The notes under the pieces: model-generated
Told to the model about the DNA's origin: nothing
What the model saw: only the letters and a program-made list of their open reading frames with translations
Database searches by the model: none
Shown: positions 2,269 to 43,590 of the stretch, in pieces
How positions within the stretch are numbered: position 1 is the first letter of the stretch
Layout: each line of letters opens with the position of its first letter
NCBI RefSeq assembly: GCF_003334315.1
Contig: NZ_QOWR01000001.1
From: Escherichia coli
Lineage (GTDB): Bacteria > Pseudomonadota > Gammaproteobacteria > Enterobacterales > Enterobacteriaceae
DNA length: 64,000 bases
Strand: one strand, 5' to 3'
Translations under genes and position numbers: made by a program

Positions 2269-4590
2269 ATGATGAATGATTCGTTCTGCCGCATTATTGC
2301 GGGTGAAATTCAGGCGCGCCCGGAACAGGTTGACGCTGCCGTTCGCCTGCTTGACGAAGGGAATACCGTGCCGTTTATCGCACGTTATCGTAAGGAAATC
2401 ACCGGCGGTCTGGATGACACGCAGCTGCGTAATCTGGAAACGCGTCTGAGCTATCTGCGCGAGCTGGAAGAGAGACGTCAGGCGATCCTCAAGTCCATTT
2501 CCGAGCAAGGCAAACTCACCGATGATCTGGCGAAGGCCATCAACGCCACCCTAAGCAAAACCGAACTCGAAGACCTCTACCTGCCCTACAAACCTAAACG
2601 CCGCACCCGCGGGCAAATCGCCATTGAAGCAGGGCTTGAGCCGTTGGCTGACCTGCTGTGGAGCGATCCGTCACACACGCCAGAAGTCGCCGCTGCACAA
2701 TATGTTGATGCCGATAAAGGCGTGGCAGATACCAAAGCCGCGCTGGATGGCGCGCGCTATATCCTGATGGAACGGTTTGCCGAAGATGCCGCGCTGCTGG
2801 CGAAAGTGCGTGATTATCTGTGGAAGAACGCGCATTTGGTTTCTACGGTGGTGAGCGGTAAAGAAGAGGAAGGGGCGAAATTCCGCGACTATTTCGATCA
2901 TCACGAACCGTTGTCCACGGTGCCTTCTCACCGCGCGCTGGCGATGTTCCGTGGGCGTAACGAAGGCGTACTCCAGCTTTCGCTGAATGCCGATCCGCAG
3001 TTCGATGAGCCGCCCAAAGAGAGCTATTGCGAGCAAATCATCATGGATCACCTTGGCCTACGCCTGAACAATGCCCCGGCGGATAGCTGGCGCAAAGGCG
3101 TAGTGAGCTGGACCTGGCGCATCAAGGTGCTGATGCATCTGGAAACCGAACTGATGGGTACCGTGCGCGAACGCGCGGAAGATGAAGCAATCAACGTCTT
3201 TGCCCGTAACCTGCACGATCTGCTGATGGCGGCCCCTGCCGGACTGCGTGCAACGATGGGCCTCGATCCGGGTCTGCGTACTGGGGTAAAAGTGGCGGTG
3301 GTCGATGCCACTGGCAAACTGGTAGCGACCGATACCATTTACCCGCACACCGGACAAGCCGCAAAAGCAGCGATGACCGTTGCTGCCTTGTGTGAAAAAC
3401 ATAACGTTGAACTGGTGGCGATCGGCAACGGTACAGCTTCCCGCGAAACTGAACGTTTCTATCTCGACGTGCAGAAGCAGTTCCCGAAAGTGACCGCACA
3501 GAAAGTGATCGTCAGCGAAGCTGGCGCGTCGGTTTACTCAGCTTCCGAGCTGGCAGCGCAGGAGTTCCCGGATCTCGACGTTTCGCTGCGTGGCGCGGTG
3601 TCTATCGCCCGCCGTTTGCAGGATCCGCTGGCGGAGCTGGTGAAAATCGATCCGAAATCTATCGGCGTAGGTCAGTATCAGCATGACGTCAGCCAGACGC
3701 AACTGGCCCGCAAACTGGACGCAGTAGTAGAAGACTGCGTAAACGCCGTTGGCGTCGATCTCAACACTGCTTCTGTTCCGCTGTTAACCCGCGTGGCGGG
3801 CCTGACGCGCATGATGGCGCAAAACATCGTGGCCTGGCGCGATGAGAACGGCCAGTTCCAGAACCGTCAGCAACTGCTGAAAGTCAGCCGTCTGGGGCCG
3901 AAAGCCTTCGAGCAGTGCGCGGGCTTCTTGCGCATTAACCACGGTGATAACCCGCTGGATGCTTCTACCGTCCACCCGGAAGCCTATCCGGTGGTGGAAC
4001 GCATTCTGGCAGCAACACAGCAGGCACTGAAAGATCTGATGGGTAACAGCAGCGAACTGCGTAACCTGAAAGCGTCTGACTTTACTGATGAAAAATTCGG
4101 TGTGCCGACAGTAACTGACATCATCAAAGAGCTGGAAAAACCGGGTCGCGATCCGCGTCCGGAATTTAAAACCGCTCAGTTTGCCGATGGCGTCGAGACA
4201 ATGAACGACCTGCAACCGGGTATGATCCTCGAAGGTGCGGTGACCAACGTCACCAACTTTGGCGCGTTTGTCGATATCGGCGTGCATCAGGACGGCCTGG
4301 TTCACATCTCTTCATTGTCGAACAAGTTTGTGGAAGATCCGCATACCGTGGTGAAAGCGGGCGACATTGTGAAGGTGAAAGTGCTGGAAGTGGATCTTCA
4401 GCGTAAACGTATCGCCCTGACTATGCGTCTGGACGAGCAGCCTGGCGAAACCAACGCCCGTCGCGGCGGCGGTAATGAACGCCCGCAAAACAACCGCCCG
4501 GCAGCCAAACCACGCGGTCGTGAAGCGCAGCCTGCCGGTAATAGCGCGATGATGGATGCGCTGGCGGCGGCAATGGGCAAAAAACGTTAA
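2269..4590 (+). CDS. tex: Tex-like RNA-binding protein (S1 domain, YqgF/HhH)
   Basis: 773-aa ORF; Tex/YhgF sequence with C-terminal S1-like segment ([21 protein letters not shown]...). Confidence 0.93.
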
Positions 4591-4615
4591 ACGCCCGGAC
4601 TGGCCCCTAAACCTG

Positions 4616-4698: not shown

Positions 4699-4898
4699 TC
4701 CACAACCAAACTCATAATATATTCCGGCAATATTTATCACTTCATTAACAACTGAAACCTTAATTAAACATTAGCCAGTCCGGGTAATTCACTATTCGAA
4801 TTATATTTTCGCTGCGATATAACCTTGAGCCACATCAACATTGAGTCAGATTATTATTCAAACCAACATTCGCACACATTTTAAGTATTGCTGATAGA

Positions 4899-8938: not shown

Positions 8939-10430
<1,492 letters not shown>

Positions 10431-10488
10431 AGCCTCGATGATGGGCGTATTATAACCAACTAAAATAGTCAACTATTAGGCCATTACT

Positions 10489-11064
10489 ATGATCCGTATT
10501 TCCGATGCTGCACAAGCGCACTTTGCCAAACTGCTGGCAAACCAGGAAGAAGGGACACAAATCCGCGTATTTGTGATTAACCCTGGCACGCCTAACGCTG
10601 AATGTGGTGTTTCTTATTGTCCGCCGGATGCCGTGGAAGCCACCGACACTGCCCTGAAATTTGACCTGCTGACCGCGTATGTTGATGAGTTAAGCGCTCC
10701 TTACCTGGAAGATGCAGAGATCGATTTTGTTACCGACCAGTTGGGTTCTCAGCTAACACTGAAAGCCCCGAACGCCAAAATGCGTAAAGTGGCAGACGAT
10801 GCACCGCTGATGGAGCGCGTGGAGTATATGCTGCAGTCGCAGATCAACCCACAGCTTGCTGGTCACGGTGGTCGCGTTTCGCTGATGGAAATCACCGAAG
10901 ACGGTTACGCCATTCTGCAATTTGGCGGCGGCTGTAACGGTTGTTCCATGGTCGATGTGACGCTGAAAGAAGGGATCGAGAAGCAGCTGCTGAACGAATT
11001 CCCGGAGCTGAAAGGTGTGCGCGATCTCACCGAACACCAGCGCGGCGAACACTCCTACTACTAA
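10489..11064 (+). CDS. nfuA: Fe-S cluster carrier NfuA
   Basis: 191-aa [31 protein letters not shown]... with CNGCSM motif. Confidence 0.95.
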
Positions 11065-11073
11065 GTTATCCCG

Positions 11074-11122
<49 letters not shown>

Positions 11123-11247
11123 GTTGAACATGTGCCAGACGTTGGCGCAGCCTTGCTTTGGCAAATCCTCGGTTCGTTTCCCCGCGATAATATGACCAAC
11201 CTCTCATAATTTAAATTTACCCCGCTCTGGTGATTCTCAAACGCCAG

Positions 11248-11263
11248 ATGTTACCCGTATCAT
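11248..11263. promoter_or_regulatory. GntR-operator-like site upstream of gntT (distal)
   Basis: ATGTTACCCGTATCAT, same half-site architecture as the gntK operator. Confidence 0.55.
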
Positions 11264-11385
11264 TCACATGGGTACCAAACATACTCCTGACATCTGACTA
11301 CAATAATTAGTTTTAGTGGGTATCAGTCGTGGTGCCGCAATATCTCTGTTCCCGATTGGGATAATTAGAGTTTGTCGTCAGAAAA

Positions 11386-11402
11386 TTGACGTTACCCATA
11401 AC
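11386..11402. promoter_or_regulatory. GntR-operator-like site upstream of gntT (proximal)
   Basis: TGACGTTACCCATAACA about 25 nt upstream of the gntT start. Confidence 0.5.
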
Positions 11403-11423
11403 AAATAAAAGGCCAGGTAAATC

Positions 11424-12740
11424 ATGCCATTAGTCATTGTTGCTATCGGTGTAATCTTGTTGTTGCTCCTGATGATCCGCTTCAAAATGAACGGCTTCAT
11501 CGCTCTCGTCCTCGTGGCGCTTGCTGTTGGATTAATGCAAGGAATGCCGCTGGATAAAGTTATTGGCTCCATCAAAGCCGGTGTCGGCGGGACGCTCGGT
11601 AGCCTTGCCCTGATCATGGGTTTTGGCGCAATGCTGGGCAAAATGCTGGCAGACTGCGGTGGCGCACAACGTATCGCCACCACGCTGATTGCCAAATTTG
11701 GTAAAAAACACATCCAGTGGGCGGTGGTACTGACCGGTTTTACCGTTGGTTTTGCCCTGTTCTATGAAGTGGGCTTTGTGCTGATGCTGCCGCTGGTGTT
11801 TACCATCGCGGCTTCTGCGAATATTCCACTGCTGTATGTTGGTGTACCAATGGCAGCTGCACTGTCTGTGACCCACGGCTTCCTGCCACCGCATCCGGGT
11901 CCGACTGCGATTGCCACCATTTTCAATGCCGATATGGGTAAAACCCTGCTGTACGGTACTATTCTGGCAATCCCGACCGTGATTCTCGCCGGTCCGGTTT
12001 ACGCTCGCGTGTTGAAAGGTATCGATAAGCCAATTCCGGAAGGTCTCTACAGCGCGAAAACCTTCAGTGAAGAAGAGATGCCGAGCTTTGGCGTCAGCGT
12101 CTGGACCTCTCTGGTGCCGGTAGTACTGATGGCGATGCGTGCGATTGCCGAAATGATCCTGCCGAAAGGTCACGCTTTCCTGCCGGTAGCGGAGTTCCTC
12201 GGTGACCCGGTAATGGCTACGCTGATTGCCGTGCTGATTGCGATGTTCACCTTTGGTCTAAACCGTGGTCGTTCAATGGATCAGATTAACGACACGCTGG
12301 TTTCTTCCATCAAAATCATTGCGATGATGCTGTTGATCATCGGTGGTGGCGGTGCGTTCAAGCAGGTGCTGGTAGACAGCGGCGTGGACAAATACATTGC
12401 TTCCATGATGCACGAAACCAACATTTCTCCGCTGCTGATGGCCTGGTCGATTGCTGCCGTACTGCGTATCGCGCTGGGTTCCGCAACCGTTGCGGCAATC
12501 ACTGCGGGTGGTATCGCGGCACCGCTGATTGCAACGACGGGTGTTAGCCCGGAGCTGATGGTTATTGCGGTTGGTTCCGGTAGTGTGATTTTCTCTCATG
12601 TGAACGATCCGGGCTTCTGGCTGTTCAAAGAGTACTTTAACCTGACTATCGGCGAGACCATCAAATCCTGGTCGATGCTGGAAACCATTATCTCGGTGTG
12701 CGGTCTGGTAGGCTGTCTGCTGCTGAATATGGTGATTTGA
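11424..12740 (+). CDS. gntT: High-affinity gluconate transporter GntT (GntP family)
   Basis: 438-aa polytopic ORF; paralogous to gntU in this window. Confidence 0.94.
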   Translation: MPLVIVAIGVILLLLLMIRFKMNGFIALVLVALAVGLMQGMPLDKVIGSIKAGVGGTLGSLALIMGFGAMLGKMLADCGGAQRIATTLIAKFGKKHIQWAVVLTGFTVGFALFYEVGFVLMLPLVFTIAASANIPLLYVGVPMAAALSVTHGFLPPHPGPTAIATIFNADMGKTLLYGTILAIPTVILAGPVYARVLKGIDKPIPEGLYSAKTFSEEEMPSFGVSVWTSLVPVVLMAMRAIAEMILPKGHAFLPVAEFLGDPVMATLIAVLIAMFTFGLNRGRSMDQINDTLVSSIKIIAMMLLIIGGGGAFKQVLVDSGVDKYIASMMHETNISPLLMAWSIAAVLRIALGSATVAAITAGGIAAPLIATTGVSPELMVIAVGSGSVIFSHVNDPGFWLFKEYFNLTIGETIKSWSMLETIISVCGLVGCLLLNMVI

Positions 12741-12752
12741 TAACACTGACTG

Positions 12753-12840
12753 CCGGATGCGGCGTGACCGCCTTATCCGGCCTACGATTCGGGATGAATT
12801 AGTAGGCCGGATAAGACGCGTCAAGCATCGCATCCGGCAT
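12753..12840. repeat. BIME (two inverted REP units) between gntT and malQ
   Basis: GCCGGATGCGGCGTGACCGCCTTATCCGGCCTAC ... GTAGGCCGGATAAGACGCGTCAAGCATCGCATCCGGCA. Confidence 0.85.
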
Positions 12841-40584: not shown

Positions 40585-41925
40585 TTAACTCAACAGCTGG
40601 AACGCAATCATCCCAACGATGGCACCGACAGTGCCGAGAATGGTTTCCATCATGGTCCAGGTTTTCAGCGTTTCGGCTTCGGTCGCGCCGGTAAATTTAC
40701 CGAACAACCAGAAACCAGCGTCGTTAACGTGGCTGACAACAATCGAACCACCAGCGATACAAATCGACAGTGCCGCCATTTGCGCACCAGAGTAGTTCAG
40801 TTGTTCAATGACTGGCATCACCAGTCCCACCGCCGTTAAACAGGCTACGGTGGCAGACCCCTGAATGATGCGCACTGCAGCGGCCAGCACGAAGCAGGTG
40901 ATAGCAATCGGCAGGCCCATGCCGGTTAACGCTTCGCCCAGTGCCGGACCTACGCCAGAGTCAACCAGCACCTGTTTGAACACGCCGCCCGCACCAATCA
41001 CCAGCAGAATGATCCCCGCCGGTTGCAGCGCGTGACCGCAAATCTCCATCACTTTGTCTTTTGGCATGCCCTGACGCATCGCCAGGCCATAAATCGCCAC
41101 CAGACAAGCAACCAGAATCGCGGTAAACGGATGACCAATAAACTCGAACCATTCGTAAGCGGTAGAGCCTTCTGGCACAAAACGCGCGGCAATGGTTTTC
41201 AGCCCCACCAGCACCAGCGGCAACAGGATCAGCGACAGGCTGAATCCGAAGGACGGCATTTTGCCTTCGCCGAGATGCGGTTCGCTGATGTCGTCAGGAA
41301 TATGCAACTCCACGTAACGGCTGATGAAATTACCCCACAGCGGCCCGGCAATAATCATTCCCGGAATTGCCGCACACAGGCCAATCAGGATCATCCAGCC
41401 AAAATCGGCGTTCATCTGCGATGCCAGCAGCATTGGCGCTGGCCCTGGCACCAGGAACGCCGCCGCTGCCGCCACGCCTGCGAATAATGGGATTACCAGC
41501 TTCACCAGGTTCGTACCGGTGTGGCGCGCCATTGAGAAAGCAACGCTAATCAGCAGAACAATCGCCACTTCAAAGAACAGCGGTAGCGCACAGACCAGCC
41601 CCGCAAGGCCGATGGCATAATGCGCGCGGCTGTGACCGAAGGATTTGAGCATTTTGACGGCAATCTGATCGACTGCGCCGGTTTCATGTAAGATCTTGCC
41701 AAACATAGCTCCCAGGGCGACAACCACCGCCAGGAAGCCGAGGGTGCCTCCCATCCCTTTTTCCATCGTCGCTGCGATTTTATCGAGCGGCATACCGGAA
41801 AAAAGGCCAGCCCCCATGGACACCACCATTAAAGCCAGGAAAGCGTGCATACGCGCCTTCATGACTAAAAACAGCAGCAGTAAAACAGACCCTACTGCTG
41901 TTAAAACAAGCGTTAATGTAGTCAC
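40585..41925 (-). CDS. gntU: Low-affinity gluconate transporter GntU (GntP family)
   Basis: 446-aa polytopic ORF; paralog of gntT. Confidence 0.93.
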   Translation of the reverse strand: MTTLTLVLTAVGSVLLLLFLVMKARMHAFLALMVVSMGAGLFSGMPLDKIAATMEKGMGGTLGFLAVVVALGAMFGKILHETGAVDQIAVKMLKSFGHSRAHYAIGLAGLVCALPLFFEVAIVLLISVAFSMARHTGTNLVKLVIPLFAGVAAAAAFLVPGPAPMLLASQMNADFGWMILIGLCAAIPGMIIAGPLWGNFISRYVELHIPDDISEPHLGEGKMPSFGFSLSLILLPLVLVGLKTIAARFVPEGSTAYEWFEFIGHPFTAILVACLVAIYGLAMRQGMPKDKVMEICGHALQPAGIILLVIGAGGVFKQVLVDSGVGPALGEALTGMGLPIAITCFVLAAAVRIIQGSATVACLTAVGLVMPVIEQLNYSGAQMAALSICIAGGSIVVSHVNDAGFWLFGKFTGATEAETLKTWTMMETILGTVGAIVGMIAFQLLS

Positions 41926-41928
41926 TAC

Positions 41929-42456
41929 TTATTTGCCTTTTTTAATAACCTCAATGGTGCTTGCCACAACACCTTCCAGCGGTTGATCGATATCCACCAC
42001 CAGTACATCAGTTTCGTCCGCACCCGGCTCCTGCAGCGTTTCAAACTGCGTCACCAACATTTGGGTTTTAAAGAAATGGCCTTTGCGCGCTTTCAGGCGG
42101 CTTTCAATCACGTCAAAATCGCCTTTCAGGTAGATGAAAGAGAGATTCGGATTACCTTCACGCAGCAAGTCGCGATAGTGTTTTTTCAATGCAGAACAGA
42201 CGATCAGTGACACTTTATTAGTGCGCTGCATAGCAAACGCGGCGTCGTTCAGCGCCTGCAACCAGGGTTTGCGATCGTCGTCATTCAGCGGTTCGCCAGA
42301 CGCCATTTTTTCGATATTGCGCCGTGGATGGAGGAAATCGCCATCAAGAAACGCGGCATGAAGTTGATGCGCCACTTCACTGGCGACCGCAGATTTGCCG
42401 CTGCCCGATACGCCCATCAAGACGTAAATGTGGTGATCATGGTTAGTCGTGCTCAA
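41929..42456 (-). CDS. gntK: Thermoresistant gluconokinase GntK
   Basis: Track ORF 41929..42477; P-loop GVSGSGKS; start set at the codon giving MSTTNHDHHIYVLMG (non-ATG), so start is uncertain. Confidence 0.88.
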   Translation of the reverse strand: MSTTNHDHHIYVLMGVSGSGKSAVASEVAHQLHAAFLDGDFLHPRRNIEKMASGEPLNDDDRKPWLQALNDAAFAMQRTNKVSLIVCSALKKHYRDLLREGNPNLSFIYLKGDFDVIESRLKARKGHFFKTQMLVTQFETLQEPGADETDVLVVDIDQPLEGVVASTIEVIKKGK

Positions 42457-42486
42457 AGTGGTGCCCCCACAATACAAGAATTAAAA

Positions 42487-42515
42487 ATGTTACGGGTAAC
42501 TGTTATCGGTAACAT
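42487..42515. promoter_or_regulatory. GntR operator upstream of gntK
   Basis: ATGTTACGGGTAAC-TGTTATCGGTAACAT, two overlapping ATGTTA/TAACAT-type half-site pairs between gntR and gntK. Confidence 0.7.
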
Positions 42516-42594
42516 TGTCCAGCCGGACAATATCAGAAGCAATATCCATCCGTGCCTTAAGTGTATAAGTGTGAGCTACTTCAAATTTGTAGGC

Positions 42595-43590
42595 TTAAAT
42601 AGATCCGCCCGGTGACAAGGTGAAACCTAAATCTAACATTTTCGGTGTCACAGATTCGCCACGAATACGCGCCAGCAGGCGTTCAGCGCCAATACTGCCC
42701 ATCCGCTCACGCGGCGTCAGTACGCTCGCCAACCGTGGTTCCATCACCTGACCAATGTCATGACCGTGGAAACCGGCAATCGCCATATCGTCAGGAACTT
42801 TTAACCCCAGACGCTGGCATTCAAACGCCGCGCCGACCGCCAGGTCATCATTAGTACAGAACACGCCATCCAGCTGCGGATATTCCCGCCTCGCCTGGCG
42901 AATCAGTTCAATACCGGAAGAGTAAGAAGAAGATTGCTCAACCATCACGCTATATGGCACCAGGTCTGCATCCAGCATCGCCTGTTCGTATCCCTTCTGT
43001 TTGATGATAGTACGTTCGTCGAGACGTGCGCCGAGATAAGCAATGTGGCGATGCCCGCGAGCAATAATGGCGGTGGTCATCTGGCGTGCCGCTTCAAAGT
43101 TATCAAAACCGACGGCAATATCGAGGCACGGCGACTTGCTGTCCATCAACTCCACCACCGGGATCCCCGCCACTTCAATCATCTTTAAGGTGCGTGGCGT
43201 GTGAGTACGTTCGGTGAGGATCAGTCCGTCGATATTCCATGAGAGCATGGATTCGAGACGTTCTTGCTCCATTTCCGGTTTATAACCGTAGTGAGCCAGC
43301 ATGGTCTGATAACCGTGCGCGTCGGTGACGCTTTCGATTCCGCGTAATACTTCCGCGAAAACCTGGTTGGTGAGAGAAGGTAACAGGACGCCAATCGCCC
43401 GGCTGGTGGCGTTAGAGAGGATATCGGGCGCACGATTGGGAATATAGCCCAGTTCATCAAGAGCCGCGGCAATCTTGCCGCGTAGAGCGACGGAAACCTG
43501 CTCCGGGTTGCGTAAAAAACGGCTGACCGTCATTTTGGTCACGCCTACACGGTCAGCCACATCCTGAAGTACGGGTCTTTTCTTTTTCAT
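42595..43590 (-). CDS. gntR: LacI-family gluconate repressor GntR
   Basis: 331-aa ORF MKKKRPVLQDVADRVGVTKMTVSRFLRNP... (LacI HTH). Confidence 0.95.
   Translation of the reverse strand: MKKKRPVLQDVADRVGVTKMTVSRFLRNPEQVSVALRGKIAAALDELGYIPNRAPDILSNATSRAIGVLLPSLTNQVFAEVLRGIESVTDAHGYQTMLAHYGYKPEMEQERLESMLSWNIDGLILTERTHTPRTLKMIEVAGIPVVELMDSKSPCLDIAVGFDNFEAARQMTTAIIARGHRHIAYLGARLDERTIIKQKGYEQAMLDADLVPYSVMVEQSSSYSSGIELIRQARREYPQLDGVFCTNDDLAVGAAFECQRLGLKVPDDMAIAGFHGHDIGQVMEPRLASVLTPRERMGSIGAERLLARIRGESVTPKMLDLGFTLSPGGSI

Follow-up and report, generated by a model that had tools for sequence, protein, structure and literature searches.

With a probability that we put at about 94%, two palindromic sequences upstream of the gluconate transporter gene gntT, hereafter O1 and O2, are GntR operators that repress gntT in the absence of gluconate, with O2 strengthening repression and CRP activating the promoter once the repressor has been released. 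Regulation of gntT by GntR through two operators and CRP is textbook E. coli physiology. From the present analysis, the reading draws on the match to the GntR palindrome, its statistical excess, its conservation, the overlap of O1 with a predicted -10 element and the finding of a repressor gene together with its family assignment; GntR binding, its release by gluconate and the combination of two sites with CRP are taken from the literature, whereas where transcription starts and precisely what O2 does are what we infer.

The window, i.e. the whole 64-kb stretch of DNA analyzed, is a piece of the Escherichia coli chromosome: positions 10400-12800 are present in 5425 of 5426 complete E. coli genomes, are 100% identical to many of them, and are annotated there as gntX-nfuA-gntT. 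The regulated gene, gntT, encodes the high-affinity gluconate transporter (11424-12740, plus strand), as annotated in E. coli genomes and as indicated by a score of 931 bits against the NCBIfam gluconate-transporter equivalog NF011560 (cutoff 744); its first position, 11424, corresponds to the start of MG1655 gntT (b3415) at 3546559. The repressor gene gntR (42595-43590, minus strand) is present in the same window, 31 kb from gntT, where it forms a block (40585-43590) with gntK (41929-42456, minus strand) and gntU (40585-41925, minus strand), so that the cognate repressor of the proposed operators is at hand (NF011563, 775 bits). Elsewhere in the window, yrhA (47842-48396) is uninterrupted, whereas the MG1655 yrhA carries an IS1E insertion, and the strain is therefore a non-K-12 E. 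coli and not MG1655.

Every position of the window was scored against the 14 specified positions of the 16-bp palindrome ATGTTACNNGTAACAT (ATGTTAC-NN-GTAACAT). A score of at least 11/14 was reached at only five positions in 64 kb, four of which are O1, O2 and a tandem pair at gntK. O1 (ATGTTACCCGTATCAT, 11248-11263, plus strand) scored 13 and O2 (ACGTTACCCATAACAA, 11389-11404, plus strand) 11, compared to 12 for each of the gntK sites at 42487 and 42500 and 11 for a match at 48613. O1 and O2 thus both show the 16-bp dyad of E. coli GntR operators. They are located between nfuA and gntT, in an intergenic region of 359 bp, and precede the gntT ATG (11424). A sequence-only reading of this DNA had proposed two half-site pairs within 11240-11405 that would be detectable by a GntR motif scan, and the two strings it quoted are indeed found, at 11248-11263 and 11387-11403; for the second, TGACGTTACCCATAACA, the 16-mer in register with O1 is ACGTTACCCATAACAA. 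Its likening of these sites to the gntK operator holds as well, but not its description of the latter as the clearer one, since it is O1, and neither of the gntK sites, that matches the consensus best within the window. The core of O2 is GTTACCCATAACA (11391-11403), and O2 matches 13 of 14 positions of the RegulonDB/PRODORIC GntR consensus, given as TGTTACCCATAACA (PMC2811016). A blind repeat search of the intergenic region returned the O1/O2 pair, at a spacing of 141 bp, as its top direct-repeat family.

The fifth position, 48613-48628 (ATTTTACCCGAATCAT, 11/14), is located in or close to a small yrhD-like ORF of the AT-rich yrhA-yrhD-yrhB island, far from the gnt genes, and is probably fortuitous. 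The occurrence of a comparable match in an unrelated AT-rich region could indicate that O1 and O2, too, resemble a short, AT-rich palindrome by chance and have no function. Dinucleotide shuffles of the window yielded on average 1.9 sites of at least 11/14, 0.15 of at least 12/14 and 0.003 of at least 13/14, and when the intergenic region was shuffled 20,000 times, at least two sites arose in 0.035% of the trials (P = 3.5e-4). The motif match is highly non-random, and this result, together with the invariance of both sites in 30 species against a drifting background (see below) and the existing functional literature, makes a chance origin extremely improbable. As a control, the same score was applied to 7 kb around zwf-edd-eda of MG1655, where only two strong sites were found, both at the promoter/5' end of edd: a 13/14 match in the zwf-edd intergenic region and a 12/14 match just within the edd coding region, 222 bp apart (4578-4593 and 4800-4815 of the extracted locus, L083). 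As at gntT, the palindrome is matched at two separate places at edd, although the second edd site is inside the ORF instead of the leader and the gene is outside the window.

The gntKU operators (Izu et al. 1997, J Mol Biol 267:778) resemble those of gntT in sharing the palindrome (12/14 each), the repressor and the presence of two sites per promoter. However, the gntK sites (ATGTTACCGATAACAG and CAGTTACCCGTAACAT on the gene strand; 42487-42515, minus strand) are arranged in tandem, overlapping by 3 bp with centres 13 bp apart, whereas the E. coli gntT sites are 141 bp apart.

These elements are well characterized, and the dual gntT operators with CRP have already been described in published work. 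The O1 string has been used as the "E. coli GntR operator" in the cell-free PURExpress system, in which GntR represses and gluconate relieves repression, and it already serves as a part in gluconate biosensors (bioRxiv 10.1101/2023.01.10.523462). A mammalian gene-switch study employs the gntK site ATGTTACCGATAACAG as GntR site and gives ATGTTACCCGTAACAT as consensus (PMC10450161). Mutation of gntR leads to up-regulation of gntT, gntK, edd and eda, and a 2024 preprint describes gntTp as having two sites for GntR and one for CRP. In addition, gluconate and 6-phosphogluconate are stated to inhibit GntR binding at the gntT promoter (in published work that cites Peekhaus and Conway 1998), and the same work states that the gnt genes are activated by cAMP-CRP. 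In comparison to the E. coli K-12 gntT operators (Porco et al. 1997, J Bacteriol 179:1584; Peekhaus and Conway 1998, J Bacteriol 180:1777), the locus is the same, the O1 sequence is identical and we see no sequence-level difference, even though the strain analyzed here is not MG1655. The motif excess, the 30-species invariance, the presence of gntR in the window and this literature all support the dual GntR operator control of gntT suggested by the sequence-only reading, and none of the results speaks against GntR operators.

Using a consensus scan, we identified a single forward promoter, a predicted sigma-70 promoter of gntT (11234-11263, plus strand) with a -35 element TTCTCA (11234-11239), an 18-bp spacer and a -10 element TATCAT (11258-11263), which would place the transcription start near 11270. 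The -10 element coincides with the right arm of O1, and the single departure of O1 from the palindrome is explained by the -10 consensus TATAAT, to which TATCAT comes closer than TAACAT does. Relative to the predicted start, the centre of O1 is near -14.5 and that of O2 near +126, the latter lying 27 bp before the ATG. Accordingly, the idea of dual operators upstream of gntT needs a positional amendment: only O1 is at the promoter, over the -10 element, while O2, although upstream of the ATG, lies downstream of the predicted start, i.e. in the transcribed leader. A sequence resembling a -35 element near O2 (TTGACG, 11386-11391) was considered as part of a second promoter and rejected, as no matching -10 element follows and the scan found none.

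Upstream of the promoter, a CRP-like site, TATGAccaaccTCTCA (TATGA-N6-TCTCA; 11191-11206, plus strand), was read from the sequence. Its centre (11198.5) precedes that of O1 by 57 bp and lies at approximately -71.5 from the predicted start, and such a TGTGA-N6-TCACA-like site at a fixed upstream distance would be in keeping with a class I-like CRP-activated promoter. In their 1998 work, Peekhaus and Conway reportedly placed one operator over the -10 element, the other at +120 and CRP at -71.5; the geometry deduced here falls within a few bases of these positions.

On this basis, the following sequence of events may be proposed. In the absence of gluconate, GntR, as a LacI/GalR-family dimer, would bind O1, cover the -10 element and thereby exclude RNA polymerase, and GntR bound to O2 in the leader would add to repression, whether by acting as a roadblock downstream or by cooperating with O1. 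Gluconate and 6-phosphogluconate would release GntR, whereupon cAMP-CRP, bound approximately 57 bp upstream of O1, could activate the weak promoter. Through the combination of GntR release and cAMP-CRP activation, gntT would respond to both inducer and catabolite repression.

Further structural features were noted in the same region. A REP-like imperfect palindrome (GCCCGATGCGACGCT / AGCGTCATTTCGGGC) is found at 11079-11118, just after nfuA, followed on its 3' side by a terminator-like hairpin at 11131-11149. An Rfam search for an RNA element in the leader returned only a sub-threshold naRNA4 match on the REP element (27.5 bits, compared to a gathering threshold of 59.5). Within the leader, a small stem-loop at 11345-11360 (GTTCCC-GATT-GGGAT) is kept in most Enterobacteriaceae, with seemingly compensatory changes in Klebsiella (GTTCC-GGTC-GGAAC), Kluyvera (TCCCT-CTGT-AGGGA) and Enterobacter sp. 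Bisph1 (CCCGC-GC-GCGGG); this stem-loop is absent from the RNAalifold calls.

To analyze conservation, one genome per species was retained, resulting in 80 GntT loci across Enterobacterales, of which 400 bp upstream were aligned and the ungapped sequences scanned. O1 and O2 are both present in 30 Enterobacteriaceae species, including Escherichia, Salmonella, Citrobacter, Enterobacter, Lelliottia, Klebsiella, Kluyvera, Kosakonia, Phytobacter, Trabulsiella, Pluralibacter and Pseudescherichia. As expected of GntR operators conserved at orthologous promoters, all 16 bases of O1 and all 13 bases of the O2 core are invariant in the realignment of these 30 species. The leader between the two sites, in contrast, is mostly 20-70% identical to that of E. 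coli; besides O1 and O2, islands of conservation are seen at the translation-initiation block and at the half-sites of the CRP-like element. The TGA and TC.CA bases of the CRP-like site are at least 90% conserved across the 80 loci, and its distance to O1 is 57 bp in 30/30 Enterobacteriaceae species, in which the distance to the -10 element is likewise constant.

The invariance of O2 extends to its non-consensus bases, which might reflect an additional constraint, such as a tuned affinity or a role of the leader RNA. This feature, together with the fact that O2 is transcribed, sits 26-27 nt from the ATG and is contiguous with the conserved translation-initiation block, would also be compatible with O2 being conserved mainly for an RNA-level function (structure, sRNA or ribosome access), its likeness to a GntR site being secondary. 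However, O2 matches no Rfam family, and RNAalifold returned -0.9 kcal/mol, 0 covarying pairs and no conserved structure over O2. Moreover, the conserved block is a DNA palindrome fitting the GntR consensus, other Enterobacterales have their second site beside O1 at the promoter instead of in the leader, and two GntR sites are given for gntTp in the 2024 preprint. We therefore judge a predominantly RNA-level role of O2 to be very unlikely and retain its assignment as a GntR operator.

How O2 contributes to repression is a separate question, for which the spacing data are informative. Looping is the traditional idea for such operator pairs: GntR molecules on O1 and O2 would be in contact, with the approximately 141 bp in between looped out, as for lac O1/O3 or gal OE/OI. 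Two operators about 140 bp apart do form a classic looping geometry, 30 species retain a promoter site combined with a second one far from it, and edd shows a similarly separated pair at 222 bp. Nevertheless, the O1-O2 spacing amounts to 65, 133, 136, 139, 140, 141, 143, 144 or 147 bp depending on the genus, and no helical phasing was detected among the 30 species, the residues modulo 10.5 ranging between 0 and 10. Short loops usually depend on phase, and operators acting through a loop would be expected to hold their distance to the helical phase, which these nine spacings do not. In addition, it is the start codon rather than O1 to which O2 is fixed, its centre lying 26-27 bp before the ATG in 30/30 species.

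The domain composition of the repressor bears on the same question. GntR (331 aa), assigned by the NCBIfam equivalog NF011563 (775 bits), consists of a LacI-type HTH domain (PF00356) followed by Peripla_BP_1/3/4 matches. The Peripla_BP_3 match ends at residue 330, so that a C-terminal tetramerisation helix as in LacI cannot be accommodated, which likewise speaks against looping. As in lac (O1/O2/O3) and gal (OE/OI), gntT combines a LacI-family repressor and a main promoter operator with an auxiliary one roughly 100-400 bp away in the transcribed region, but it differs from both systems in that GntR is without the LacI-like C-terminal extension and the O1-O2 distance without conserved helical phase. 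Given a variable, unphased O1-O2 distance, an O2 anchored to the ATG and a repressor devoid of a tetramerisation tail, we favour O2 as an independent roadblock or as part of a flexible interaction over a rigid loop, and we regard looping as a doubtful, albeit still credible, alternative.

The same Pfam search found no PF00392 domain in E. coli GntR, and the protein is consequently no member of the GntR superfamily (FadR/HutC/MocR/YtrA). E. coli GntR is a LacI/GalR-family repressor and does not belong to the "GntR family", which takes its name from the Bacillus protein; the term "GntR-type", as initially applied to the two sites, is hence appropriate as a reference to the E. coli protein's name but misleading if taken to denote the GntR/FadR/HutC family. 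GntR also scores 400 bits on the NCBIfam IdnR model, from which it follows that GntR and IdnR are close paralogues. It could accordingly be argued that O1 and O2 are used chiefly by IdnR (GntH) and not by GntR, the more so as GntH is said to act on the GntR-regulated GntI genes via the same elements (Tsunedomi and colleagues, 2003). The literature nonetheless attributes gntT repression to GntR, and IdnR binding would be additional to that of GntR rather than an alternative to it; we hold a chief role of IdnR at these sites to be highly improbable and keep GntR as the repressor acting on them.

Outside the Enterobacteriaceae, GntT-equivalog genes show a different arrangement, in which two tandem sites have their centres 14 bp apart and share 2 bp (for example ATGTTACCGGTATCATGATACCGGTAACAA). 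This tandem layout was found in Yersinia, Serratia, Rahnella, Dickeya, Lonsdalea, Sodalis, Pragia, Pantoea, Mixta and some Erwinia (loci L025-L076, e.g. L035:1340-1375), and the second site accordingly abuts O1 at the gntT promoter in most families (Yersiniaceae, Erwiniaceae, Pectobacteriaceae, Budviciaceae). The tandem gntT layout of these more distant Enterobacterales resembles the arrangement at E. coli gntK, and a gluconokinase gene is the divergent upstream neighbour of gntT in Yersinia. As judged from the sequences compared, dual operators are universal and their layout is family-dependent.

In some genera, though not in E. coli, the CRP site is preceded by a third sequence that resembles an operator. 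In Klebsiella and Kluyvera, this element is ATGTTACCGCGCAACAT, of 17 bp with one extra central base, and in Phytobacter, Enterobacter sp. Bisph1 and a MAG it reads [G/C/T]TGTTACCCGTATCTT. It is situated about 110-120 bp upstream of O1 in six loci (L015, L017, L018, L020, L022, L026) and 120 bp upstream of O1 in three others (L019, L024, L045).

Overall, our results confirm that true operators can be recovered by reading raw sequence alone. To the established regulation of gntT they make a small comparative addition, namely an unphased O1-O2 spacing, a start-codon-anchored O2 and tandem sites elsewhere in the order, which bears on the choice between looping and a roadblock. A tentative scenario, to which we give rather less than even credence, is that the second operator changed its place during the evolution of the Enterobacterales, so that O2 in E. 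coli would serve as an independent roadblock or have a leader-linked role and would not be a looping partner of O1. If such a relocation were true, the usual reading of the dual operator would need revising.
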